From the NCBI RefSeq assembly GCF_963506605.1, contig NC_083278.1, positions 19,530,001-19,594,000 on the forward strand: a stretch of DNA of 64,000 bases. The letters are read 5' to 3'. A program made the translations under genes and the position numbers. Shown here in pieces: positions 926 to 58,285 of this stretch (its first letter is position 1; each line of letters starts with the position of its first letter). This stretch comes from Zootoca vivipara. Its lineage: Eukaryota. The notes beneath the pieces were generated by a model. It did no database searches. It was not told where the DNA came from and saw only the letters and a program-made list of their open reading frames with translations.

Positions 926-2704
926 TATGTGCTGTTTTCCCCTACCCCCCACCCCCAGGCACGCTACAGGTTTAAGATGTGTAAGCATTTTAAAACATAG
1001 TGTGTGACAATTAAACAGCTCTAAAGTCTTGTTCACACATGCATACAGATAACCAGGCAGCTGGTGATTGATAGCTGAATGTGTGCGCCAGACCCCTTGT
1101 TTGAGGTAGATAAGAAATAATATGGAAAATTTTTTGGGGGTGTTTAATCTGCAGTGGTTGGTTCACACACACAAGTCACAGCCTGCTACATTCACCAATT
1201 GATATATTTGCATGTGTGTGCAGACCTGCCCTTAGATACAGATCCATCACATGATACGCAGCCCAGATTCATCACTCCTTCATGCACTGTGTTTAATGTC
1301 TGTTTATTTTTATCCTGGCTTCCCCCTCTTCCCCCAAGATGTTTTTGTTTGGTTGGCCTTACTCTGAAAATTCCATTGGGTGACTTAATACCTGCCAAGA
1401 CCAAGGTTTGGATTCCTTTATTTCTTCAGTCATCACTGATGAATCACTGAAAATCTGACAACAAAGTGGGAAGCTCATACCTTACATGGCCTTCGGCTTT
1501 CATGATTTATCCGCAACAGCAAGACGAAGAAACAAGAACTTTGAAGTCAGTATTTGACAAATCAAGGAGGACCTTTTGTTCAAACATTTCTCCTTCTGAG
1601 ATGTGTTTTGGTTTTAAGCCTTTAAACATTTTGTAAATGCTCTTGGAATCCTTATGAGTTAAAGAAAACAATGGATTTCAACCTTTCTGTAATGCTGCAT
1701 TTTTTATGATACTCGTAAACATGTTAGTCTATGAGCCTTTCCTTATAAATCAAACACATCAAATTGGTTGGGCAATTTCGTCAGTGTAATTTTCTAGCCA
1801 TAACTCTGCAAACAAGTGAAGTTAAAAGTAATTATTTTCATGTTGTCATATTATTAAAACATAAAGGAGGATACAGCATAGTTTGATGAGAAAATATTTA
1901 TGCACCCTTTTCACATCATAAAGGCATGCACATTTTAAAGGATTTGAGTGAGTATCATATTTTGCGCTTTATTGTCAGCTATTATGTAATTTGGTTGGGT
2001 TCTAGAGATGACCTACTTATAAACAACAACAACAACAACAACACCACCACTCTGGCCCACTCCCTTTCTTTCTAATAACACTTAGCGCAAGCCAGATTTC
2101 CTCTGGAACCATTATGCACAAAGTTACATGGCAAGTTCACTCATTTCTTAAATTCCTACAATAATCTAGCTCTACTATGCGAAATTGCCTTGAACATCAG
2201 TGTTACCCCCTAAGTAAATAAAAGTGAAGCTCAAAAGTAAATAGCCAGAAAAAGGTTTTGAACTTGAAGTTTAGTGCTATTTAAGTTTTCATTTCATGCA
2301 GGTATGAGAGAGTTGGATGGAAATTTTGGGTTGACAGTTAACTTGCATTTAAAACTAGCCGGTGCCACAGAGCTGTCATCCAAAGGTGTATTTGAGCTAG
2401 GCAGAACCTTTTACATTTTTACCCAGTTGAAGGAATGCAGGTAAGCCAGGGAGGACCTTGGTTTAAGAGTCTGAGGGATAAAGTAAGTGTGCCTAGCTTA
2501 TTCTCCAGGGTCATTGTTGAATAGGCTAACTGAGCTGGTGTAGCTTATCACTGTTTTTGAACTTTGTTTACAAGAAAATGAGTTAATTTCTATTTCCTTG
2601 AGTTTATACATTAACTTTGTGTTTCATAGCTACGAGCTTGTATGTGTTTGTTCTGACACAGAGGAAGAAAAATGAAGTCTTTTTTTTTAGTCATGCAAGA
2701 CCTA

Positions 2705-3058
2705 AGGAAAAGGTAAAGGGACCCCTGACCTTTAGGTCCAGTCGTGACCGACTCTGGGGTTGCGACGCTCATCTCGCTTTATTGGCCGAGGGAGCCGGCG
2801 TGCAGCTTCCAGGTCATGTGGCCAGCATGACAAAGCCGCTTCTGGTGAACCAGAGCAGCGCACGGAAACGCCATTTACCTTCCCGCCGGAGTGGTACATA
2901 TTTATCTACTTGCACTTGATGTGCTTTCGAACTGCTAGGTTGGCAGGAGCTGGGACCAAACAACGGGAGCTCACCCCGTCGCGGGGATTCGAACCACCAA
3001 CCTTCTGATTGGCAAGCCCTAGGCTCTGTGGTTTAACCCACAGCGCCACCCGTGTCCC
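2705..3058 (-). mobile_element. Sauria SINE, full length
   Basis: Minus strand: tRNA-like head GGGACACGGGTGGCGCTGTGGGTTAAACC, box B GGTTCGAATCC, TTTACCTTT tail; flanking direct repeat TGCAAGACCTA at 2694-2704 and 3063-3073; homologous to four other copies in the window. Confidence 0.92.
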
Positions 3059-5400: not shown

Positions 5401-6815
5401 TACTCATGCATTTTAATGGATTTACACGTGGTTATGGGTTGCTGTTGTTGCTGTTTTTTGATTGGAGGCATCCTTTTGGGGCAGGCTTCCAGCAGGGCAG
5501 CACTTCCTGTTTTGCCTCAAGCGGTGAAACAGGACCCACCACCCCTGCTTCCAGTATTATTGTGTCTTATTTTGTAATAGTGTCAGTTTTGCTATGCATC
5601 TACTGATCTTGCCATTAACTAAGTTCATTTGACCATTTTCTGAACTTCCTCAATCCCATTATGTGGATCACTTGCCCTACGCTCCTAATTCCTCTCTGCC
5701 TGCAATGCAGACACTTTCTAAGTGTTTGCAAGCATTAATTTCCAGAGGGGTGCAGAAAGCTTAAATGGGTAGTATTGGCTGCGTGAGAATCAAACATTCC
5801 TGGTTTACAGAAATGGCAGATTTTCTGCAGAAGAGCAAAACGAGATAAGACTATGGTCACAGTTCTTGGAGCATTTTGCTATAATAGGAATGGAATGGGA
5901 TATACAGTATGTGAATGTCAACCTCCCCCCCCTTTATTCCTTTTCTAGCAACTTATTTAATTCATTGTGGGCAAGTTTGTGTTTTGATTAAGGACTGCAT
6001 CTTGGAGCAGGCAGTGTAAACACTTTGGGAGGAATAGGTGGCCCAAATCTTAAATAGCAGGACCTCAAACACACATTTCTGTGTTTTATACATACTCTCT
6101 CTAGCTTGTATTCTGCCCATTTTGATTTGTTTCCAGCTTGACTCCTTCCTTTCCCCCATCAGTTGTTGCTGTAGCAATGCTAATATTTAATATTACAGAT
6201 TTATGTATTTTTAAACAGCACTACTTTATTGCTCTCCAATGAATATATGCTTCAATCCTATAGGATCTGTTCTATATCTAATACAGCAGAAAACTTGGTG
6301 GAAGCCAATGCTCCTAAACGGATACCAAAAATAATTCATGAAAGCGAAATGGAAAAGGAGTAAGTTAATGAAGAGAGAGCGAAGGCATTATTGATCATGA
6401 TTGGATTCAGAAGCAGCAGCTATTAGATTCAGTAAAAGAACTGAAATTTAATGAAGAATGTGAATGAAAGGTTAGAGGCAGTGTGCATAAAAATAACTTA
6501 ACAGGGATTTTGTTTTGTTCTCCTTTGGTTCTTCTCCCATTTATATAGTTTTCTTCTTTGAAGTAGTGCATAATTCAAGACAAAGAAGATTAAAGGAAGC
6601 AGACTAGTTATACCAGGATTGTAATGTGCAATCTTTTCATGTTTCCTTGTGGGGGAAGGCCCATTAAACTCAATATGGCATTACTTCTGCGTAAGCTCAT
6701 CTTGGATTGGGCAGTGTTAGAGATGAGTATGAAGAGTAATATGTAATACTGTATGTGCACTGACTTTCCACCTGGAAAAAAATATTCTTTGAACTGCGTC
6801 ACTAGTTCTTAGATA

Positions 6816-16361: not shown

Positions 16362-17023
16362 AAGATCATGGCCACTGGTCCCATCACCTCCTGGCAAATA
16401 GAAGGGGAAGAAATGGAGGCAGTGAGAGATTTTACTTTCTTGGGCTCCTTGATCGCTGCAGATGGTGACAGCAGTCACGAAATTAAAAGACGCCTGCTTC
16501 TTGGGAGAAAAGCAATGACAAACCTAGACAGCATCTTAAAAAGCAGAGACATCACCTTGCCAACAAAGGTCCATATAGTTAAAGCTATGGTTTTCCCAGT
16601 AGTGATGTATGGAAGTGAGAGCTGGACCACAAAGAAGGCTGATCGCCGAAGAATTGATGCTTTTGAATTATGGTGCTGGAGGAGACTCTTGAGAGTCGCA
16701 TGGACTGCAAGAAGATCAAACCTATCCATTCTGAAGGAAATCAGCCCTGAGTGCTCACTGGAAGGACAGATCCTGAAGCTGAGGCTCCAATACTTTGACC
16801 ACCTCATGAGAAGACTCCCTGGAAAAGACCCTGATGTTGGGAAAGATTGAGGGCACAAGGAGAAGGGGACAACAGAGGACGAGATGGTTGGACAGTGTTC
16901 TCGAAGCTACGAACATGAGTTTGACCAAGCTGCAGGAGGCAGTGGAAGACAGGAGTGCCTGGCGTGCTATGGTCCATGGGGTCACGAAGAGTCGGACACA
17001 ACTAAATGACTAAACAACAACAA
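16362..17023 (+). mobile_element. 5'-truncated BovB LINE
   Basis: Near-identical to the 3' 660 bp of the element at 53808-57029 (KIMATGPITSWQIEGEEMEAV...); small frameshifting deletion near 16812; (CAA)n tail. Confidence 0.97.
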
Positions 17024-18640: not shown

Positions 18641-19163
18641 AAAAAGGTAAAGGACCCCTGGTCAGTTAAGTCCAGTCAAAGGCGACTATGGGGTTGCGGT
18701 GCTCATCTCGCTTTCAGGCCAAAGGAGCTGGTGTTTGTCCACAGACAGCTTTCTGGGTCATGTGACCAGCATGACTAAAGAGCTTCTGGCACAATGGGCA
18801 CAGTGCCAGAAACCAGAGCACATGGAAACACCATTTACCTTCCTGCCGCAGTGATAGCTATTTATCTACTTGCACTGGTGTGCTTTTGAACTGCTAGGTT
18901 GGCAGAAGCTGGGACAGAGCAACGGGAGCTCACCCCGCTGCGGGGATTCAAACCACCAACCTTCTGATCTGCAAGCCCAAGAGGCTCAGTGGTTTAGACC
19001 AGTGGTCCTCAACCTTGGGCCTCCAGATGTTTTTGGCCTACAGCTCCCATGATCCCTAGCTAGCAGGACCAGTGGTCAGGGATGATGGGAATTGTAGTCT
19101 CAAAACATCTGGAGGCCCAAGGTTGAGGACCACTGGTTTAGACCACAGCGCCACCCGCATCCT
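18641..19163 (-). mobile_element. Sauria SINE interrupted by a MITE
   Basis: Homologous to 2705-3058; flanking repeat ATTACCACTAT/ATTACCATTAT. Confidence 0.9.
19000..19135. mobile_element. hAT (Buster/Charlie-type) MITE
   Basis: Long perfect TIR CAGTGGTCCTCAACCTTGGGCCTCCAGATGTTTT; 8-bp TSD GTTTAGAC. Confidence 0.92.
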
Positions 19164-22226: not shown

Positions 22227-22552
22227 GGGGCTGATCAGGAGGTCGGTGGTTCGAATCCACGCGACAGGGTGAGCTCCTGTTGCTCTGTCCCAGCTTCTGC
22301 CAACCTAGCAGTTCAAAAACACCAGTGCAAGTAGATAACTAAGTACTGCTGCAGCAGGAAGGTAAACTGTGTTTCCATGCACTCTAGCTTCTGTCATGGT
22401 GTTCCATTGCACCAGAAGCGGTTTAGTCATGCTGGCCACATGACTCGGTAAGCTGTCTGTGGACAAACACCAGCTCCCTCGGCCTGAGGCAAGATGAGCT
22501 CCGCAACCCCATAGTCGCCGTTGACTGGACTTAACTGTCCAGGGGTCCTTTG
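22227..22552 (+). mobile_element. Sauria SINE, 5'-truncated
   Basis: Box B GGTTCGAATCC, CCAACCTAGCAGTTC, CATGCTGGCCACATGAC and CCAGGGGTCCTTT end. Confidence 0.88.
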
Positions 22553-25500: not shown

Positions 25501-27673
25501 TGAACGTGAGTCTTTGCACTATTTTGACCTTGCAAATAAAATATAGGTTAGCAGTAATCCCTCAAGAGAGTACCCATAAGTACCCATGCTATGGTTTTTC
25601 TCATTGCTGATATAAAAACATTGACACCAATAAGAACCAGTTGCACATACAATTAATAGGATCACAGTTAGGTTTATTGGGTTTAGATTTACTAATATAT
25701 ATTCCCACTAAAAAAAAGTCCCAAAGCGATTAACAGCATTTTTTTTAAAGAATACAGTGATCAAATCACACAAACCCTTTCAATATAGATTTAACAATGC
25801 AATATTTGCTTTAAAGTATTTATATACCACTTAATATTTCAGAAATCTCTGAGTGGCATGCCTGAGTCTAAAAAATTATATATAGTTAAAACAAAAACAC
25901 AACCTAAAAGCAGCAATATAAAAGCATATAAAAGTGAATAAAAGACAAATTCAAGATACCCAAACATGTAAAACAGGTCTAATTTGATGGTTCAGGGAGA
26001 CCCTGTACCATTTCCTGCTTGCCTTGCTCAATTTCCATTGCAACTTCTGAAACAGGGTTCTGTCCCCTCTTTCTCTTGCAGTAGTTTCTCATGACCACAG
26101 CCTGTACCTGTGTCTACTCCTTGGTGAGCCTTCTTCCTTGACTATATTAGATCCACTAAATGCCTTAAAATTTAGGATGTACATGCATCTTAATTTTATT
26201 TATGGTCTGAACTCTTTTGCTGTTTAAAAGTATGCAGAACGTTTTTGAACAATGGAGGTGTTCTGGTAAGGGTTATTATCTCCACATATCCTGTGTTTCA
26301 TAATCCCAAGGCAAATTCTCTTGTTAGCTTTTTCCAACAACAGCTTAGGAGCTAATGCCTAGGGGGCGAGGTCACTTTGCCACCCCCAATAAAACATTTG
26401 AGGGGGGCAGCCCCCCAGTTGATGGGCATTGCCATTCAGAATGTGCGTATACACCTCACTACTATGCGAGGTGGAGCTTACCTGGGGCCTCCAAATATTT
26501 TGTTCAAGTTGGCACCCATGGCAGGAGGTGAGCTGAGAAGCTGCTGTCTGTTTACACATGTAGGCAGTAAGTACTTGAGAAGTGCTTTCTCGTCACAAAT
26601 AGCATGGGACGGGGTGACATGAGAATGACATTGTGTGTATAGCAACCCAAAATGGTGCCATATCCAGCACTTGAATGCACATTTTCATGCCATGTATATA
26701 CCCCTGTAATGTGAAATGTGGCATGTTTGCCCTATTTCATACCCAAGATAACATAATGGGGAGCTGCAACTTGAAGTGCTTCCTATGTTACCTGATTAGA
26801 GCATCAGACGCCATCTTTGGCAGAGTAAACTTTGGTTTTCTGCCTCCCGTTGGTGATTGGTCACCTGTTCTTTCTATTCCATTATTAAAAACATTGATCT
26901 ATGAAAAGGGAAACCAGACTTGAAAAGGTCAGGACCTATTTAGGGGGGGAGGGGAGAAACCTTTGAGTTTTCCCGGTAAACTTCTAAAGCACTGAAAATG
27001 CCGCAATCCCTTACAGCTTGAGGATCAAATTTCACATAACAGCAATGGCTTCAAAAATGGAATCGTAATAATGCAATGTAGTGCGGAGATCACAAAAAGA
27101 TGCCTATGGATCTGGCGGTGCAACATTTAGTCTTTTTATGTTCACTAGTGCATCATTTGTCAGCATTAAACCACTAGTTCAGGGAGTCTTCAGACACTTA
27201 AGATGAATGATACTCCTTTAAAAAAATCAATATTCACTTTAATATGATGTACGGTAATACTATAATGTAGCATTTTGATGGTATGTTTTAGAACATAATG
27301 CCATGTCTGCTTTTGAGAATAATGAAGAAATCACTATTATATCGCTAAAACTTTGTGGGACATTTATATATTTACTTGCATTAGTGTGCAAGCCCTGTTC
27401 TTTACTCACTTGGAAGTCTAGCCTGATTGATCACCAACATTTCCATAACAGTGCAGGACAAATTTGATTTTAAATATTTATTTCGTTATCTTTTGTATGG
27501 CATTTGAACCTGCTTCCATGTGTGTATGTTTTGTTGTCTGTGTGACTTCTAGTGAGAAGGAAGTTGTGAGTTTCATATAGATGTATGAACACATTCACAC
27601 ACAATGCCAGATTTGTTTTGAGTTTAAGCACTACTTGTGTCAATCAATTCAGCAGTCTGGCTGTGGGCCTCTC

Positions 27674-27817
27674 NNNNNNNNNNNNNNNNNNNNNNNNNNN
27701 NNNNNNNNNNNNNNNNNNNNNNNNNNNNNNNNNNNNNNNNNNNNNNNNNNNNNNNNNNNNNNNNNNNNNNNNNNNNNNNNNNNNNNNNNNNNNNNNNNNN
27801 NNNNNNNNNNNNNNNNN
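27674..27817. other. Assembly gap (144 N)
   Basis: Run of N. Confidence 1.
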
Positions 27818-27953
27818 TGCCTCAAGCAGCAAAATGTCTTCAGCTGGCATGGGGTTAGATTTTTTTTTGCTCAGTTTTGAACTTCCTTTTTTATATCTGT
27901 AAAATGAGGAACATTGCCAAGCTAATGCTCATAAGAGTACTAAGGGAGTTGCG

Positions 27954-28693
27954 TGTTAAGACCTCCCCCAATAAATAAAGACACTATTGTCACGGAATTT
28001 AGTTTAAGGTTATTGGCATAATTTTGGCAACAACTTTATTGATTACTGATCATGAGTGGTTTGCTTAGGCATTGGTTCTCGACTAGCTGCACCTCACCTT
28101 AGCAGGGCAGCACTGACGCCTGGATTCCGGCAGATGTCAGTAAGGGAAAACATCCAGGGGGAGCATTGGACCAGGTTCAGACTCAAGCTCACCCCAAATG
28201 CTCCCAGGGGCTCTGGCGTGGCCCTAACCCCTGGAAGAGGATCGGACATAAGCAAGGCGAGCCACTGGATTCCTTTAATGGAATACCCTTTCGCACATTG
28301 GAGGGGCAGGTGTGACAACCTCTCCTCCTCTCCACATTGAACCAATGCCTAACCGCCAAACATTAGAAAGTTTTGATGATTTGCTACGCGGCAGGTGAAA
28401 CCCAAGTGGCACTAGCCAATCAGCCAAGTGGGAAAATTCCTACCGGGACCCTGTCCCAAGATGACCCAAGACGGCATAGCAAGGTCATGATGAACCCTAA
28501 ATATAGGGAGGGTGGGCAGGTGATCCGGTGCACGAGGCGAAAAAAGAGGAAGCTCAATGCAACGTGCAGTGGTACATATACAGTAGGTCCCTCGGTTAAT
28601 GCATGAAATGATCCCATTGGCCAGAAATACCCCAGCAACCGAGGGATCACCAATCGTGTTGTTGTGGCTATCCACTCGCTCCCACCCACAACA
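27954..28693 (-). mobile_element. Solo LTR with a long, highly structured R-like region
   Basis: TGTT...AACA termini; on the minus strand CCAAT (28620-28616), TATAT (28580-28576), AATAAA (28040-28035) and downstream GT/T-rich sequence. No clean TSD, PBS or PPT seen. Confidence 0.7.
28381..28482 (-). ncRNA. ENE-like RNA structure (U-rich internal loop between two helices)
   Basis: CGGUAGG-AAUUUU-CCCA...UGGG-UUUCA-CCUGCCG, above a three-way junction closed by UUGCUAUG/CGUAGCAA. Confidence 0.45.
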
Positions 28694-29714
28694 GCAGTGA
28701 GGTCAGTCTTTATCATCTCACCGCAGTGCGTGCTCTGTGGGAGGAGGACAAGATTCAATAAAATTGTGAAATATTTTTGCATGGTCAAACCTTCTTTAGA
28801 AATTATTACAATGGATAGTGTGAATTAGCTCCACCGTGCATGTATGTGGCCATGTTTAATAGTCTGTTGCGCTTTTATTTCATTTGTGTTGGGGTAGTAG
28901 TCTCTTCCCAGTATTTTATGAGGTTGAAGCAAAAATGCAGGCATTGTCTCTTCTGAAAAATGTGCCACCTTCAAGTATTAGTGGCATTCTAAGGTTTGTA
29001 ACTTATTCCACAAATACATAAGATGGTCACTCAAAAACAGTATTCAAAAAACTGAGGAAACTTCTTAATAGTGGGTTACACCTACCCAGGCATATTCCTT
29101 TTGGCATCTTCTGAGACATTTATGTGATCTACAATACTAGTGTGGCTTTTCCGCAAAGGCAAGTGATGTTTGATCTACAGTGACAACCATATACTGAGAA
29201 ATTTGTACTTGCTAATGTTTCAGGGAGTTATATTTTCAAGGTCTGCTATTTTAAACAACTCGTTGCTCTGTTGCCTAGATCTGCCACAGTCAGCATGGAA
29301 AAAGAGATATGAGAGCATTTAAAATGTGCTCCTTTCCTTATAGAAAGATCTTGAGAGCAAAATAGAATTGGATGCCAAGTACGCACAACTGTCAAGGAGG
29401 GCACATGAAAACTGTCTTTATATTGGGTCTATAAACACTCCCCGTTTAATTGGTTTATTCCAAATTTCACTCTCAGATATTTGAATACAGTGATCTAGGC
29501 TTAATAGATAGGGTTAATATAATCTAGATTTTTAAAAAACATATATATGGTGGAATTCAATGGTGCACTCTCCCAATCGTTCTATCTTCACAAGCACTGC
29601 AGCTTACCAGATGGAACGAGGTAGTTCCAACTTTTTTATAGGTCACGCAAACTTAATAAGGAGGCATTTCCTCACCTTGGCTTTGTGCATATGTAGAAGC
29701 GTGCATATGACTCA

Positions 29715-29860
29715 GCCAGAAGCGACTAAGTCATCCTGGCCACATGACCCAGAAGCTGTCTGTGGGCAAACGCCGGTTCCCTCGGCCTATAGAGCGAGAT
29801 GAGCATGCAACCCCAGAGTCGTCCGTAACTGCATCTAACGGACAGGGGTAACTTTACCTA
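29715..29860 (+). mobile_element. Sauria SINE 3' fragment
   Basis: CCAGAAGCGACTAAGTCATCCTGGCCACATGACCC...CCCCAGAGTCG...CTTTACCT. Confidence 0.8.
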
Positions 29861-30118
29861 GAAGTTGTGATTCCTGCTTTGGGTTCCTTCCAACTCCACA
29901 TTTCTATGATGCTATGATACCTGCTCCCCCCCATGTGCTCTTCTGTAGGATTCCCCCCCCCCCAAGGCCAATTTCAGGAGGCAAGGGCATATGGGGGAGG
30001 TCCCCATTATGCAAGCAGAGTTCTTGCACAGGGCTTCCGCTTTTAAAGCTGGTTAGATTAATCCTGCCCTTACATACCTGCCGACATTTCTCTGATGAAA
30101 ATAGGGACGTCCTATTCC

Positions 30119-33100: not shown

Positions 33101-33176
33101 CCTGATGTGCTTCATCTTTACCCAATAGGCCAGAAACAATGAACTGATACAGACTTAAATCATGCTTACATTAGAC

Positions 33177-33312
33177 CAGGCATCCACAAACTTCGGCCCT
33201 CCAGATGTTTTGGGCTACAATTCCCATCATCCCTCACCACTGGTCCTATTAGCTAGGGATCATGGGAGTTGTAGGCCAAAACATCTGGAGGGCCGCAGTT
33301 TGGAGATGCCTG
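33177..33312. mobile_element. hAT (Buster/Charlie-type) MITE
   Basis: TIR CAGGCATC..CAAACT.CGGCCCTCCAGATGTTTTGG; 8-bp TSD CATTAGAC. Confidence 0.92.
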
Positions 33313-34644
33313 CATTAGACTCACTGATTCCTATGGTTCCACTGTCATCATGACTAAAGCTGGATCCAAACCAATAATTAAACAGCCGGGTGCACTGAAG
33401 TAACTTACCCCCTCACCTATTCCCTTTTCTCCTTCTCCATCCTCTCAAACCATTTCAGTTCGAACTTCGGAGACATGTTTGTTTATAAATTTATACCCCA
33501 CCTTTCTGCAAAAGTCCCATCAGGCAGCTCACACAAAATGGACGGTACAAAATTAAATAGCCTAAAAACAAAACACAGAGCAAAGCAAACTTAGCAAGCA
33601 AAATCAACATCAGTTAAACACAAACAAGCTGCAGTTTTAACAGCAGATCACTCAGCAGAGGGCTGAGAACAAAGAGCAGTCCTTCCCTTCCACTCACTCG
33701 TTTCTTTTGCCAGCCTTAATCGCCTCTTGCTCCGAAGATCATGCTACTCCAGAAATTCTTATTGTCAGATGCCTTGACAAATGGCTACGTAATACAATGT
33801 GTCAACAGGTGATGTGCCCAGCTCTGTCCTAACACAATAAACATCTTGGCAGACTTGAAGAGGTGGCCTTAATCCCATCTGTTAGTTTGTTTGGAGCTGA
33901 AACCTGTGTAATGGGAAATAACAAAATATAACCCCTTACAGCAAGTGCAAAACTTTGTGCTTCCAGTTCTGTGTATTTATGGCAGAATAAATGTATGGGG
34001 TGGACTGCACAGCTCAAGCTTACATCCTTTTTCTCTAGATGGAGTCTCTGTCATATATTACGTGACCTTAGAGACATTCCAACAAATTATGAGTGCATCT
34101 TTCTGTATGTTACCTGCTACATGTTTTATGGTTTGAGCTTGAGAATTTCCTTTGCCTTGACTGGTTTTGTAGAGTGCAAGCACACAAACCGATAGGGGAC
34201 ATAGAACTGAACAGGTGGACATGCTGCGAATATTTTTTTTGCCACCGTGCATCTCCTTTTCACAACACTTGGTGCCAGAACAGCAGTTGCAGTAGAATAA
34301 CTACAGCCATTGGAATTTCACTTGGCCAGTTTTCCAAGTCTCCCCACTACCAAGTTGGCTGGGCTTGTTATATTCAGTGACTGATTAGAGTATTCTTAAT
34401 ATTTTTGTTAAAAAAAATATTGGAAGCTGTTGCATGCAAAAAGTTAACCTTTCATCCATCAACCCCCAGCTGCCAAAACTTATCTCAGTACTCCCATTTC
34501 TCCCCTCCCAATTTGCAGCTGAAAAGCAGGACTGTTGTGTGCTTAGCTTTTCCACCGCATACTCATCACCAACATTATTTTCTGGCTCATAGTTGTAGTG
34601 TTATGAAAAGAAATGGCTGGGAACAGAGGAAGGGGAGGAAGCTT

Positions 34645-35545: not shown

Positions 35546-35553
35546 CCCTAGAG

Positions 35554-35693
35554 CAGGCATCCCCAAACTCGGCCCTCCAAATGTTTTGGGACTACAACTC
35601 CCATCATCCCTAGCTGACAGGACCGGTGGTCAGGGATGATGGGAGGGAATTGTAGTCCCAAAACATCTGGAGGGCCGAGTTTGGGGGTGCCTG
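35554..35693. mobile_element. Young hAT MITE in tandem with the older copy
   Basis: TIR CAGGCATCCCCAAACTCGGCCCTCCA; TSD CCCTAGAG at 35546-35553 and 35694-35701. Confidence 0.92.
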
Positions 35694-36479
35694 CCCTAGA
35701 GACATGAACCTGATAAGAGGGTTACTGCACCACATAGTCATATCCTTTTGTTCACTTCCAGGTAGACCAATTCATTTCTCAGCTTTTGGTGTTTGCTGAT
35801 GAAAGTCCATTATCCCCCCCCTTTTTTTTGTTCCCTTTATGATTTCTCCCATTGAAGAGAATGATAGTCAGGTGCCAAGAGCATTGTCCAGATCAGGCAG
35901 TCTATCCAGGGACCTGAAAATTTCTCACATAAATACTCAATTGTTAGATTGAATAAATGGGCTGAATTGTTAACGATTTATAGACCCTTTATAAAGGGGA
36001 AGGAGATGCGTTGAAGTCACGAGCACCTGAATTGATCAATGCTCTCAGTGTTCTACCAGAAACACATCTAAAGAAAACAGTAATAAAATATGTAGTAGCT
36101 CCTTATGAAAAGCTTCTATTTAGAATGGTAGCTTTTGAATGTGCCTTACAAAGAACAGGCTTCATATTCCCCTAAGGAAGCTATTGCACTAGTTTATTAA
36201 AAAAAAGGTTCATTTCTAATTAGCCCAGAAACATTTTAAGAATAGGACAAGGCTTTTTTCAATGGCAAGAAGTTAACTAAACCTCCTTGGGTTTGTTTGT
36301 TAGGAAGTGGTTTGTGAAAGATTCCACACGTTCCAAACCTTTGGCAGGTAAAAACGGAATTTTCTCAAAAAACATAGCTCCCTCCACTGGACATCAAAGG
36401 AGCATACACCTCACCTGCTGCCATTGGCTGCATACTATCAGTAACAACAGAACATTCCAACCTTTAACAGAAAACAACA

Positions 36480-37155: not shown

Positions 37156-37420
37156 GGATAGCTCAGATGGTTAGAGTGTGGCGCTGAAATGCCAGTGTTG
37201 TAGGTTTAGTTCCTTTATGGAACAGCTGCATATTCCTGCATTGCAGGGGGTTGGACTAGATCACGCATCTCCAAACTTCGGCCCTCCAGATGTTTTGGAC
37301 TACAATTCCCATCTTCCCCGACCACTGGTCCTGTTAGCTCGGGATCATGGGAGTTGTAGGCCAAAACATCTGGAGGGCCGCAGTTTGGGAATGCCTGGAC
37401 TAGATGATCCTCAGTGTCCC
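37156..37420 (+). mobile_element. tRNA-derived SINE with CR1-type tail (POM/Squam2-like), interrupted by a MITE
   Basis: Box A-like TAGCTCAGATGG; tail ATTCCTGCATTGCAGGGGGTTGGACTAGAT[MITE]GATCC. Confidence 0.75.
37262..37397. mobile_element. hAT MITE
   Basis: Near-identical to 33177-33312; 8-bp TSD GACTAGAT. Confidence 0.92.
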
Positions 37421-53807: not shown

Positions 53808-56800
53808 TTTGTTGTTGTTGTTTAGTCGTTTAGTCGTGTCCGACTCTTCGTGACCCCATGGACCATAGCACGCCAGGCACTCCTGTCTTGCACTGCCTCC
53901 CGCAGTTTGGTCAAACTCATGTTTGTAGCTTCGAGAACACTGTCCAACCATCTCGTCCTCTGTCGTCCCCTTCTCCTAGTGCCCTCAATCTTTCCCAACA
54001 TCAGGGTCTTTTCCAAGGATTCTTCTCTTCTCATGAGGTGGCCAAAGTATTGGAGCCTCAGCTTCACGATCTGTCCTTCCAGGGAGCACTCAGGGCTGAT
54101 TTCCTGAAGAATGGATAGGTTTGATCTTCTTGCAGTCCACGGGACTCTCAAGAGTCTCCTCCAGCACCATAATTCAAAAGCATCAATTCTTCGGCGATCA
54201 GCCTTCTTTATGGTCCAGCTCTCACTTCCATACATCACTACTGGGAAAACCATAGCTTTAACTATACGGACCTTTGTCGGCAAGGTGATGTCTCTGCTTT
54301 TTAAGATGCTGTCTAGGTTTGTCATTGCTTTTCTCCCAAGAAGCAGGCGTCTTTTAATTTCGTGACTGCTGTCACCATCTGCAGTGATCAAGGAGCCCAA
54401 GAAGGTGAAATCTCTCACTGCCTCCATTTCTTCCCCTTCTATTTGCCAGGAGGTGATGGGACCAGTGGCCATGATCTTGGTTTTTTTGATGTTGAGCTTC
54501 AGACCATATTTTGCGCTCTCCTCTTTCACCCTCATTAAAAGGTTCTTTAATTCCTCCTCGCTTTCTGCCATCAAGGTTGTGTCATCTGCATATCTGAGGT
54601 TGTTGATATTTCTTCCGGCAATCTTAATTCCGGCTTGGGATTCATCTAGTCCAGCCTTTCGCATGATGAATTCTGCATATAAGTTAAATAAGCAGGGAGA
54701 CAATATACAACCTTGTCGTACTCCTTTCCCAATTTTGAACCACTCAGTTGTTCCATATCCAGTTCTGACTGTAGCTTCTTGTCCCACATAGAGATTTCTC
54801 AGGAGACAGATGAGGTGATCAGGCACTCCCATTTCTTTAAGAACTTGCCATAGTTTGCTGTGGTCGACACAGTCAAAGGCTTTTGCATAGTCAATGAAGC
54901 AGAAGTAGACGTTTTTCTGGAACTCTCTAGCTTTCTCCATAATCCAGCGCATGTTTGCTATTTGGTCTCTGGTTCCTCTGCCTTTTCGAAATCCAGCTTG
55001 CACTTCTGGGAGTTCTCGGTCCACATACTGCTTAAGCCTGCCTTGTAGAATTTTAAGCATAACCTTGCTAGCGTGTGAAATGAGCGCAATTGTGCGGTAG
55101 TTGGAGCATTCTTTGGCACTGCCCTTCTTTGGAATTGGGATGTAGACTGATCTTCTCCAATCCTTTGGCCATTGCTGAGTTTTCCAAACTTGCTGGCATA
55201 TTGGGTGTAGCACCTTAACAGCATCATCTTTTAAAATTTTAAATAGTTCAGCTGGAATATCATCACTTCCACTGGCCTTGTTATTAGCAGTGCTTTCTAA
55301 GGCCCATTTGACTTCACTCTCCAAGATGTCTGGCTCAAGGTCAGCAACCACACTATCTGGGGTGTACGAGACCTCCATATCTTTCTGGTATAATTCCTCT
55401 GTGTATTCTTGCCACCTCTTCTTGATGTCTTCTGCTTCTGTTAGGTCCTTACCACTTTTGTCCTTGATTATGGTAATCTTTGTACGAAATGTTCCTTTCA
55501 TGTCTCCAATTTTCTTGAACAGATCTCTGGTTTTCCCCATTCTATTGTTTTCCTCTATTTCTTTGCATTGCTCATTTAAGAAGACCCTCTTGTCTCTCCT
55601 TGCTGTTTTTTGGAAATCTGCATTCAGTTTCCTGTATCTTTCCCTATCTCCCTTGCATTTTGCTTGCCTCCTCTCCTCCGCTATTTGTAAGGCCTCGTTG
55701 GACAGCCATTTTGCTTTCTTGCATTTCCTTTTCCTTGGGATGGTTTTCGTTGCTGCCTCCTGTATAATGTTACGAGCCTCCATCCATAGTTCTTCAGGCA
55801 CTCTGTCCACCAAATCTAAATCCTTAAACCTGTTCCTCACTTCCACTGTGTATTCATAAGGGATTTGATTCAGATTGTATCTTACTGGCCCAGTGGTTTT
55901 TCCTACTTTCTTCAGTTTAAGCTGGAATTTTGCTATAAGAAGCTGATGATCTGAGTTACAGTCAGCTCCAGGTCTTGTTTTTGCTGACTGTATAGAGCTT
56001 CTCCATCTTTGGCTGCAGAGAATATAATCAATCTGATTTCGATGCTGCCCATTTGGTGATATCCATGTGTAGAGTCGTCTCTTGTGTTGTTGGAAGAGAG
56101 TGTTTGTGATGACCAGCTTGTTCTCTTGACAGAACTCTATTAGCCTTTGCCCTGCTTCATTTTGAACTCCAAGGCCAAACTTGCCAGTTGTTCCTTTTAT
56201 CTCTTGATTCCCTACTTTAGCATTCCAGTCCCCTGTAATGAGAAGAACATCCTTCTTCGGTGTCATTTCTAGAAGGTGTTGTAGGTCTTCATAGAATTGG
56301 TCAATTTCACTTTCTTCAGCTCCGGTAGTTGGTGCATAAACTTGGATTACTGTGATGTTAAAAGGTCTGCCTTGGATTCGTATCGAGATCATTCTGTCAT
56401 TTTTGAGATTGCATCCCATTACAGCTTTTGCCACTCTTTTGTTGACTATGAGGGCCACTCCATTTCTACTACGGGATTCTTGCCCACAGTAGTAGATATG
56501 ATAGTCACCCGAACTGAATTCGCCCATTCCCTTCCATTTTAGTTCACTGATGCCCAGGATGTCGATATTTATTCTTGTCATCTCATTTTTGACCACATCC
56601 AGCTTACCTCCACTCATGGTTCTTACATTCCAGGTTCCTATGCAATATTTTTCTTTACAGCATCGGACTTTCCTTTCGCTTCGAGGCATATCCGCAACTG
56701 AGCGTCCTTTCGGCTTTGGCCCAGCCGCTTCATCAGCTCTGAATCTACTTGTACTTGTCCTCCGCTCTTCCTCAGTAGCATGTTGGACGCCTTCCGACCT

Positions 56801-57029
56801 GAGGGGCTCATCTTCCAGCGTCATAACTTTTATATGCCTGTTGTCTTTGTCCATGGAGTTTTCTTGGCAGGGATACTGGAGTGGCTTGCCAGTTCCTTCT
56901 CCAGGTGGATCACGTTTAGTCAAAACTCTCCACTATGACCTGTCCATCTTGGGTGGCCCTGCATGGCATAGCTCATAGCTTCTCTGAGTTATTCAAGCCC
57001 CTTCGCCACGACAAGGCATTGATCCATGC
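53808..57029 (-). mobile_element. Full-length BovB (RTE clade) LINE, ~3.2 kb
   Basis: Perfect 12-bp TSD CTTCTCTGCAAT at 53796-53807 and 57030-57041; RTE-type leader CCTTGTCGTGGCGAAGGGGCTTG; single ORF; (CAA)n tail. Confidence 0.97.
53822..56923 (-). CDS. BovB ORF: AP endonuclease plus reverse transcriptase (1033 codons open; first ATG at 56854)
   Basis: APE motifs GTWNVR, DILGISE, QVYAPT, GDWNA, IDYIL, SDH; RT motifs NYRTIAL, QAGFR, FIDYAKAFD, GVRQGCILSP, YADD; no stops or frameshifts. Confidence 0.97.
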   Translation of the reverse strand: MTKRDPPGEGTGKPLQYPCQENSMDKDNRHIKVMTLEDEPLRSEGVQHATEEERRTSTSRFRADEAAGPKPKGRSVADMPRSERKVRCCKEKYCIGTWNVRTMSGGKLDVVKNEMTRINIDILGISELKWKGMGEFSSGDYHIYYCGQESRSRNGVALIVNKRVAKAVMGCNLKNDRMISIRIQGRPFNITVIQVYAPTTGAEESEIDQFYEDLQHLLEMTPKKDVLLITGDWNAKVGNQEIKGTTGKFGLGVQNEAGQRLIEFCQENKLVITNTLFQQHKRRLYTWISPNGQHRNQIDYILCSQRWRSSIQSAKTRPGADCNSDHQLLIAKFQLKLKKVGKTTGPVRYNLNQIPYEYTVEVRNRFKDLDLVDRVPEELWMEARNIIQEAATKTIPRKRKCKKAKWLSNEALQIAEERRQAKCKGDRERYRKLNADFQKTARRDKRVFLNEQCKEIEENNRMGKTRDLFKKIGDMKGTFRTKITIIKDKSGKDLTEAEDIKKRWQEYTEELYQKDMEVSYTPDSVVADLEPDILESEVKWALESTANNKASGSDDIPAELFKILKDDAVKVLHPICQQVWKTQQWPKDWRRSVYIPIPKKGSAKECSNYRTIALISHASKVMLKILQGRLKQYVDRELPEVQAGFRKGRGTRDQIANMRWIMEKAREFQKNVYFCFIDYAKAFDCVDHSKLWQVLKEMGVPDHLICLLRNLYVGQEATVRTGYGTTEWFKIGKGVRQGCILSPCLFNLYAEFIMRKAGLDESQAGIKIAGRNINNLRYADDTTLMAESEEELKNLLMRVKEESAKYGLKLNIKKTKIMATGPITSWQIEGEEMEAVRDFTFLGSLITADGDSSHEIKRRLLLGRKAMTNLDSILKSRDITLPTKVRIVKAMVFPVVMYGSESWTIKKADRRRIDAFELWCWRRLLRVPWTARRSNLSILQEISPECSLEGQIVKLRLQYFGHLMRREESLEKTLMLGKIEGTRRRGRQRTRWLDSVLEATNMSLTKLREAVQDRSAWRAMVHGVTKSRTRLND

Positions 57030-57970: not shown

Positions 57971-58285
57971 AAAGGTAAAGGTAAAAGGACCCCTGACCGT
58001 TAGGTCCAGTCGCAGACGACTCTGGGGTTGTGGCACTCATCTTGCTTTACTGGCCGAGGGAGCCGGCGTACAGCTTCTGGGTCATGTAGCCGGCATGACT
58101 AAGCCGCTTCTGGTGAACCAGAGCAGGGCACAGAAATGCCGTTTACCTTCCCGCCGGAGCGGTACCTATTTATCTACTTGCATTTTGATGTGCTTTCGAA
58201 CTGCAAGGTTGGCAGGAGCAGGAGCAGGGACCGAGCTCACCCCGTCGCGGGGATTCGAACCGCTGACCTGATCGGCAAGCCCTAG
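57971..58285 (-). mobile_element. Sauria SINE, 5'-truncated
   Basis: AAAGGTAAAGGTAAA tail; body homologous to 2705-3058; box B present. Confidence 0.9.

Follow-up and report, generated by a model that had tools for sequence, protein, structure and literature searches.

What is the branched fold that can be drawn on the minus strand at 28381..28482 of the window (the whole 64,000-nucleotide stretch of Zootoca vivipara DNA analysed here), in what kind of repeat does it lie, and what could it do for that repeat? The initial annotation had read it as an ENE-like, poly(A)-clamping element inside a lizard LTR, an assignment in which the class of the host, the reality of the fold and its function are separate matters.

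The repeat that carries the fold

All features relevant to the argument lie on the minus strand:

27949..28754, minus: 806-nt solo unit of a Ngaro retrotransposon, with the order A-spacer-B, which nhmmer matches to the A2-spacer-B2 part at the end of intact YR elements
28521..28754, minus: repeat A, presumed promoter part; its 3' boundary (GGATCA) is placed by comparison with relatives
28620-28616, minus: CCAAT in repeat A, from the sequence
28580-28571, minus: TATA-like stretch in repeat A, from the sequence
28552-28542, minus: pyrimidine initiator-like run in repeat A, from the sequence
28358..28520, minus: unique spacer that separates A from B and is present once per intact element
28497..28515, minus: candidate splice-acceptor-like tract at the spacer start, a pyrimidine run with YAG after it, present in 18/21 family representatives versus 23/126 control windows
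28381..28482, minus: three-way-junction RNA module, from predicted fold and family covariation; closing helix P1 pairs 28482-28475 with 28388-28381
28445..28467, minus: side hairpin P2 (with a bulged G in the families, damaged here)
28390..28444, minus: ENE-like arm, from predicted fold and alignment
28444-28439 with 28395-28390, minus: lower helix P3 of the arm
28438-28433 (AAUUUU) and 28400-28396 (UUUCA), minus: strands of the U-rich loop
28432-28429/28404-28401 and 28426-28423/28410-28407, minus: upper helices of the arm
27949..28357, minus: repeat B with the poly(A) signal, from homology to intact elements
28339..28352, minus: 5' arm of a 14-bp long-range stem closing B
28065..28078, minus: 3' arm of this stem, 25 nt upstream of AATAAA
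28035..28040, minus: poly(A) signal AATAAA, with a GU/U-rich stretch downstream of it

The window unit is an old copy, 86–89% identical to 29 sister copies depending on the region. A DNA search of the species' own genome, in which the best 40 of 5655 candidates were scored, gave at least 42 matches at 80–90% identity, the window itself excluded. None of the 22 copies (of 30) that had both ends carries a 4–6 bp target-site duplication. The unit termini are ATCGTG...CGCAA, and AA stands immediately 5' of the unit in 17/22 copies, while the unit itself also ends in AA. With the duplication absent, AA at both the left flank and the unit end, and no TG...CA termini, we rejected for the host repeat an LTR retrotransposon or the solo LTR of an ERV.

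What it is instead became apparent from a PF00589 search of the genome, which returned 62 tyrosine-recombinase matches, ten of which were taken with their flanks. Seven of these ten loci contain two near-identical B repeats 3' of the ORFs, and all seven intact relatives having both B copies and upstream DNA show the split direct repeats A1-ORFs-B1-A2-B2, with B1 and B2 99–100% identical. Both relatives scanned against Pfam (L046 and L051) have RVT_1 and Phage_integrase above the cut-off, and L051 alone has a GDSL/SGNH-like fourth ORF, its Lipase_GDSL_2 match (E 1e-6) lying below the cut-off. This layout and coding capacity identify the host element as one of the Ngaro type (order DIRS), arranged as described in PMC9210276 and PMC8547959. 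A Ngaro reverse transcriptase, tyrosine recombinase or hydrolase-like ORF was not found in the window. With nhmmer, the window unit aligns to the A2-spacer-B2 ends of these intact elements at E-values as low as 2e-22. In 7/7 intact copies, A1 covers just the first 213–264 nt of the 376–588 nt stretch between B1 and B2; for L055, the A1 copy used comes from another unit close by, in inverted orientation. Because the homology of the window unit is to the A2-to-B2 end and A1 stops short of the spacer, we read this unit as A-spacer-B, and its simplest origin is likely a leftover of recombination between A1 and A2. A search for a full-length member of the window's own family with two junction patterns gave 0 matches.

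The fold occurs once per element, in the unique A2-B2 spacer, in 7/7 intact relatives. An early idea of ours, that the module also sits at the RNA 5' end within A1, was rejected, as A1 lacks the spacer part. Close to this arrangement is Xenopus DIRS-53_XT, a Ngaro element with an SGNH ORF that shares the order A1-ORFs-B1-A2-B2, the reverse transcriptase, the tyrosine recombinase and the hydrolase-like fourth ORF (PMC9210276); unlike in that element as it is presented there, A2 and B2 of the lizard elements are held apart by 160–320 nt of unique, structured spacer. The excerpts of PMC9210276 on DIRS-53_XT-type Ngaro elements describe no RNA structure. Non-coding remnants made of A and B are likewise known as the solo AB repeats of Cafeteria Ngaro elements (PMC8547959), and SIRE, which consists of the VIPER A2, a short exclusive part and B2, is similar (PMC6681497). 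In contrast to both, the lizard units number thousands and fall into many families, each carrying the RNA module.

Several further observations concern these elements and their surroundings. L046, L049, L050, L052, L053 and L051 are intact-looking, with 99–100% identical repeats and long ORFs, for which reason several Ngaro families were likely active recently. Tandem repeats lie downstream of A1 in the 5' region of intact-looking elements, several acceptor-like repeats stand in tandem in the L051 family, and the fourth ORF is also preceded by a similar acceptor-like tract. In L004 (2240-3380), a Ngaro unit of another family is inserted at AA within a copy of the window family and is itself broken by a SINE-like repeat. 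Elsewhere in the window, an open 1036-aa LINE ORF with endonuclease and reverse transcriptase, presumably RTE/BovB-like, occupies 53822-56932 (minus strand) and ends in a (CAA)n tail; a 97% identical LINE 3' fragment lies inverted at 16362-17023. Palindromic MITE-like repeats of about 150 nt are located at 18983-19152, 33172-33319, 35548-35699 and 37256-37403, and copies of a common SINE-like repeat, which we take to be Sauria SINE, at 2704-3022, 18642-18981, 22230-22551 and 57972-58269.

The fold in the window copy and across families

The strands named in the initial annotation are all present: the lower helix, the AAUUUU/UUUCA loop, the upper helices CCCA/UGGG and UGGC/GCCA and the closing stem all form in the 102-nt minus-strand fold at 28482-28381, and the AATAAA at 28040-28035 follows 341 nt downstream, close to the 340 nt it had given. 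The proposed side hairpin GUCUUGGG/CUUGGGAC did not hold up; it is missing from the minimum free energy structure and depends on changes private to the window copy (28469, 28448 and a 5-nt deletion), whereas the side hairpin of the family carries a bulged G. The minus strand folds with -39 kcal/mol (z -2.1, 5/200 shuffles equally good), but the plus strand of the same piece scores nearly alike (z -2.0, 7/200 shuffles), which makes the folding energy of a single copy weak evidence. In longer transcript context, the lower helix of the window copy has a probability of 0.08–0.55, varying with the ends chosen. Its U runs of 4 and 3 recur in 13/30 family copies, 3 and 3 in six. The window copy is thus best described as the fossil of a functional module that probably does little itself.

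The family as a whole is more informative. A pattern of loop and stem had 436 exact matches in the genome, versus 0 for the reversed control, and 30/30 matches examined were Ngaro-type units. Most of ten copies from different families share the three-way junction, with z-scores from -3.5 to +0.2 that are mostly weak. For covariation, 60 model matches were reduced to 37 copies, leaving out near-duplicates and deleted copies, and aligned on sequence alone; 22 pairs (813 cells) were scored, the upper helices being left out because MAFFT did not align them. In this alignment, 93.4% of the 813 cells pair, as opposed to 28–49% in slid controls. Two-sided changes occur at 10/22 pairs, a number reached by 0/500 shuffles, although 26/37 rows had been chosen for the motif or for resembling it, and rows that share descent can exceed shuffles without selection. 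Examples are a U-A to A-U change in the lower helix (6 rows) and a G-U to C-G change in the closing helix (5 rows). As the core is largely conserved in sequence, the two-sided changes stem from few lineages. G-U cells outnumber A-C cells by 119 to 19, an excess that speaks for RNA of the element's sense strand and, together with the two-sided changes, agrees with the RNA role on this strand that had been suggested from G-U pairs in the window copy. The two G-C pairs beneath the loop and three U's per strand are invariant in 37/37 copies.

Selection bias was controlled by choosing copies by their downstream flank alone; the flank pattern has at least 1669 exact matches in the genome and 0 in the control, and the first 30 were used. 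U runs on both strands of the loop reach at least 3 in 30/30 of these copies, at least 4 in 25/30 and at least 5 in 5/30, and the G-C pair closing the loop has a probability above 0.5 in 20/30. Conservation of the U-rich loop, the second point on which the annotation had made itself refutable beside covariation, is therefore observed in copies picked by flank as well. Overall, the opposed U runs vary in length from 3 to 8, with runs of 5–6 in young intact families. The lower helix exceeds a probability of 0.5 in transcript context in 6/8 intact elements and 11/17 family solos, and across six families found without the motif, arm identity is 0.67 compared with 0.49 in A (shuffled 0.48–0.49). 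The sense strand folds better in 30/30 flank-picked copies, which we do not count as evidence since G/U-rich strands fold so anyway. Taken together, pairing, covariation and loop conservation indicate that the fold is real, conserved across many lizard Ngaro-type families and beyond chance at the family level.

These data also bear on the caveat that the sequence could be a DNA element, a site for NF-kB or another transcription factor with an incidental fold. The plus strand of the window copy does contain GGGAAAATTCC. However, the 10-bp NF-kB consensus matches 0/30 flank-picked copies and its 11-bp form 1/30, the 5' promoter repeat A1 lacks the motif, and both the two-sided changes and the excess of G-U over A-C indicate RNA of the sense strand. 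We rejected the NF-kB site on the consensus count and its absence from A1, and consider a DNA element of any such kind highly improbable.

Relation to known ENEs and occurrence outside Ngaro

An ENE is defined by a U-rich internal loop beside G-C pairs (PMC7583470), and the annotation's claim of such a geometry upstream of a poly(A) signal is borne out. U runs lie on both strands of an internal loop within a stem-loop, on the transcribed strand and upstream of the poly(A) site, next to G-C pairs of the kind used for A-minor contacts, with two non-U nucleotides per strand intervening. This A-A/C opposite Y-R step, which separates the U's from the lower G-C pairs, counts against a clamp, as do the short U runs, at least 5 on both strands in just 5/30 flank-picked copies.

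The single-domain ENE of KSHV PAN shares the stem-loop with a U-rich internal loop by G-C pairs, located 5' of the poly(A) signal; it makes five U-A-U triples, while 3–6 would be possible in the Ngaro module, depending on the family (PMC7583470). Unlike in PAN, the Ngaro arm sits on a three-way junction, and a long-range stem is proposed to deliver the tail. A similar location is found in the ENE of Evade/Copia93, which lies in a retrotransposon RNA, in the unique spacer before the 3' terminal repeat, and requires its U's and flanking G-C pairs (PMC12501189). The ENEs and dENEs of plant and fungal transposable elements are likewise motifs of retrotransposon RNA (reviewed in PMC7583470 and PMC13541005). 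In contrast to these elements, the Ngaro module has a single rather than a double U loop, a vertebrate tyrosine-recombinase host and two identical poly(A) signals. We rejected a double ENE for the window, as there is one U loop only, the upper internal loop being a 2x2 pyrimidine mismatch. Stickleback retroviruses are already listed among transposable elements with ENEs (PMC7583470), so the Ngaro module would not be the first in a vertebrate. MALAT1 and MEN-beta, with their blunt-ended triple helix, share the U-rich internal loop; unlike them, the Ngaro module has neither a tRNA-like element nor a conserved A tract, and a canonical AAUAAA is present. ARAGORN predicted 0 tRNA-like genes in 27000-30000, and among family copies we saw no conserved genomic A tract after the module. 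Rfam gave chance matches only, none at gathering level, for the window surroundings and four related loci. The ENE, Ngaro, DIRS and CR1 literature searched, key ENE surveys excepted, yielded no published description of the module; the ENE lists of Tycowski (2012, 2016) and Torabi (2021, Science and PNAS) could include such a case. Judged by its geometry, the module is likely a new, putative ENE variant.

Is the module confined to Ngaro? The annotation had proposed a resemblance to a motif in turtle and frog CR1 3' UTRs, which would imply a module shared between LINE and LTR elements. Part of this stands: the GGAAGGAAUUUU...UUUUGCCUUCC form occurs in DNA that is not Ngaro and is homologous over the whole module, but the module was found in 0/25 lizard CR1 3' ends, which represent essentially one or two families with short UTRs. 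This motif form had four matches in metagenome contigs, all in GC-rich, vertebrate-like repeats (L098-L101) that we presume to be bird-like, as the CR1 fragment in one of them resembles the avian type. The model built from Ngaro copies scores these records at E ~1e-6, a value biased by their having been picked by pattern. Outside the pattern, they retain the closing helix, the bulged-G hairpin with a G-C to A-U change, and the CACUU tail. No match to a Ngaro protein was found in these records. The CR1 fragment near one of the modules is a later, separate insertion, missing at the sister locus. Degenerate tandem copies of the module also lie downstream of the module in L098-L101. Homology of this extent indicates that the module exists outside Ngaro.

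In the lizard genome, by comparison, all routes led back to Ngaro or to weak matches. The one strong model match among the 25 CR1 loci falls in a Ngaro unit adjacent to the CR1, on its upstream side. The two-part GGAAGG-type pattern had two matches, a diverged Ngaro-like copy (L064) and a weak one (L065, model E 0.03); the single-strand pattern also had two, both Ngaro-like; and the bird-like module as a DNA query returned eight, all Ngaro units. Two pattern matches in viral contigs, neither of them matched by the model, were taken as chance.

A putative clamp on read-through RNA

How could the tail reach a loop some 340 nt away? The start of B pairs with the strand shortly before AAUAAA, in 14 perfect pairs in the window copy. 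An AAUAAA-like site lies within range in 29/33 copies examined, 266–335 nt beyond the modelled end of the module in 28 of the 29 copies having one. The B stem is equalled or bettered by no more than 2 of 200 shuffles in 23/29 copies, occurs in the compensatory forms AGGCAUUGG/CCAAUGCCU, AGGCGUUGG/CCAACGCCU and AGGCUCUGG/CCAGAGCCU, and has a probability above 0.5 in 8/8 intact elements and 13/17 family solos. In the model, this stem would loop out about 300 nt of B and bring the cleavage site to within a few tens of nt of the module.

From these elements, we propose that the module is a putative poly(A) clamp of the single-domain ENE type, by which RNAs with their end in B2 would be favoured, a reading that we prefer by a small margin. 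Under the established model of the layout and of repeat annealing (PMC6681497, PMC8547959), Ngaro RNA would start in A1, have to run past the poly(A) signal of B1 in order to take in the B1-A2 junction, and finish in B2. The module would thus be carried only by RNAs reaching past B1, and RNAs cut at B1 would be without a clamp. By cutting the 340 nt that separate the module from AAUAAA down to a few tens, the B stem could allow the tail to fold back onto the loop, where the returning tail would form 3–6 U-A-U triples above the invariant G-C pairs. Poly(A) bound in the U-rich internal loop would then be deadenylated more slowly.

The same placement permits another interpretation, in which a protein recognises the module on full-length RNA, with the U's as part of the binding site, for Gag-like packaging, for setting up reverse transcription or for CTE-like nuclear export. 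Retroviral export elements sit in a position comparable to that of the module before the 3' repeat. The module is single-copy and confined to read-through RNA, and sequence conservation at the junction, at the bulged G and at CACAACUU further downstream exceeds what a triplex needs. On the other hand, the module also occurs in non-Ngaro DNA without a Ngaro protein match, so a host-facing role fits better than one specific to a Ngaro protein, and opposed U runs (3–8) flanked by G-C pairs are the signature of an ENE (PMC7583470). We regard a protein signal as unlikely, if worth keeping in view.

Less probable still, to our judgement, is an enhancer of 3'-end processing, in which the module and the acceptor-like tract make the poly(A) signal of B2 stronger than the identical one of B1. 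Since B1 and B2 are 99–100% identical, the choice of poly(A) site must come from context, and the contexts differ: an acceptor-like tract lies 5' of the module in 18/21 families, in 8/8 copies inspected, what stands before B1 is another structure, a small GC hairpin, and the B stem would carry the module close to AAUAAA. This hairpin (GAGCC/GGCUC type, variable between families; L046 ~6335-6360 and homologues) lies directly 5' of B1, in the place that the module holds before B2. Yet the U's of the module are opposed within a helix, whereas U-rich upstream enhancers are usually single-stranded, and a splice joint into the spacer is absent from the RNA reads, at low depth. An enhancer role is compatible with an ENE role; clamp, protein signal and enhancer are not mutually exclusive.

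These reads come from three RNA runs of the same species and one study, about 6% of each, which were mapped to the 3' part of the intact element L046. Spacer depth is 0.3–7, with reads solely in the expected sense direction in 3/3 runs, a call that assumes the direction given by most stranded libraries; the upstream part of A has a depth of at most 0.45, and one run has antisense reads over B. The reads are mostly 90–99% alike to L046, suggesting that they come from related copies. In one relative, RNA depth climbs at the place matching the presumed promoter part of repeat A. Neither a poly(A) end nor a splice joint into the spacer was seen in the L046 mapping at depth up to 7, and among the matches listed there was no RNA record carrying the L046 end.

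Finally, we would like to place the clamp reading in a wider context. The putative clamp, confined to the spacer, and its delivery stem are a candidate for how Ngaro favours RNA that ends at the second poly(A) signal. The bird-like, non-Ngaro homologue hints at module exchange between elements. A more far-reaching proposal combines the two: a portable three-way-junction ENE exchanged between unrelated classes of vertebrate retroelements (Ngaro and CR1 LINE), and a read-through switch in Ngaro that selects the replication template by tail clamping, in which the long-range delivery stem and the clamp would protect only transcripts not cut at the first of the two identical poly(A) signals. In this combined form the proposal is tentative, and we hold it to be doubtful. 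The clamp by itself, if confirmed, would make tyrosine-recombinase retrotransposons a further host of ENEs and a branched scaffold a further setting for them. Thousands of solo units in lizard genomes (at least 1669 exact matches to the flank pattern) also bring along a presumed promoter, an acceptor-like site, a candidate stability element and a poly(A) signal, with possible effects on host transcripts.
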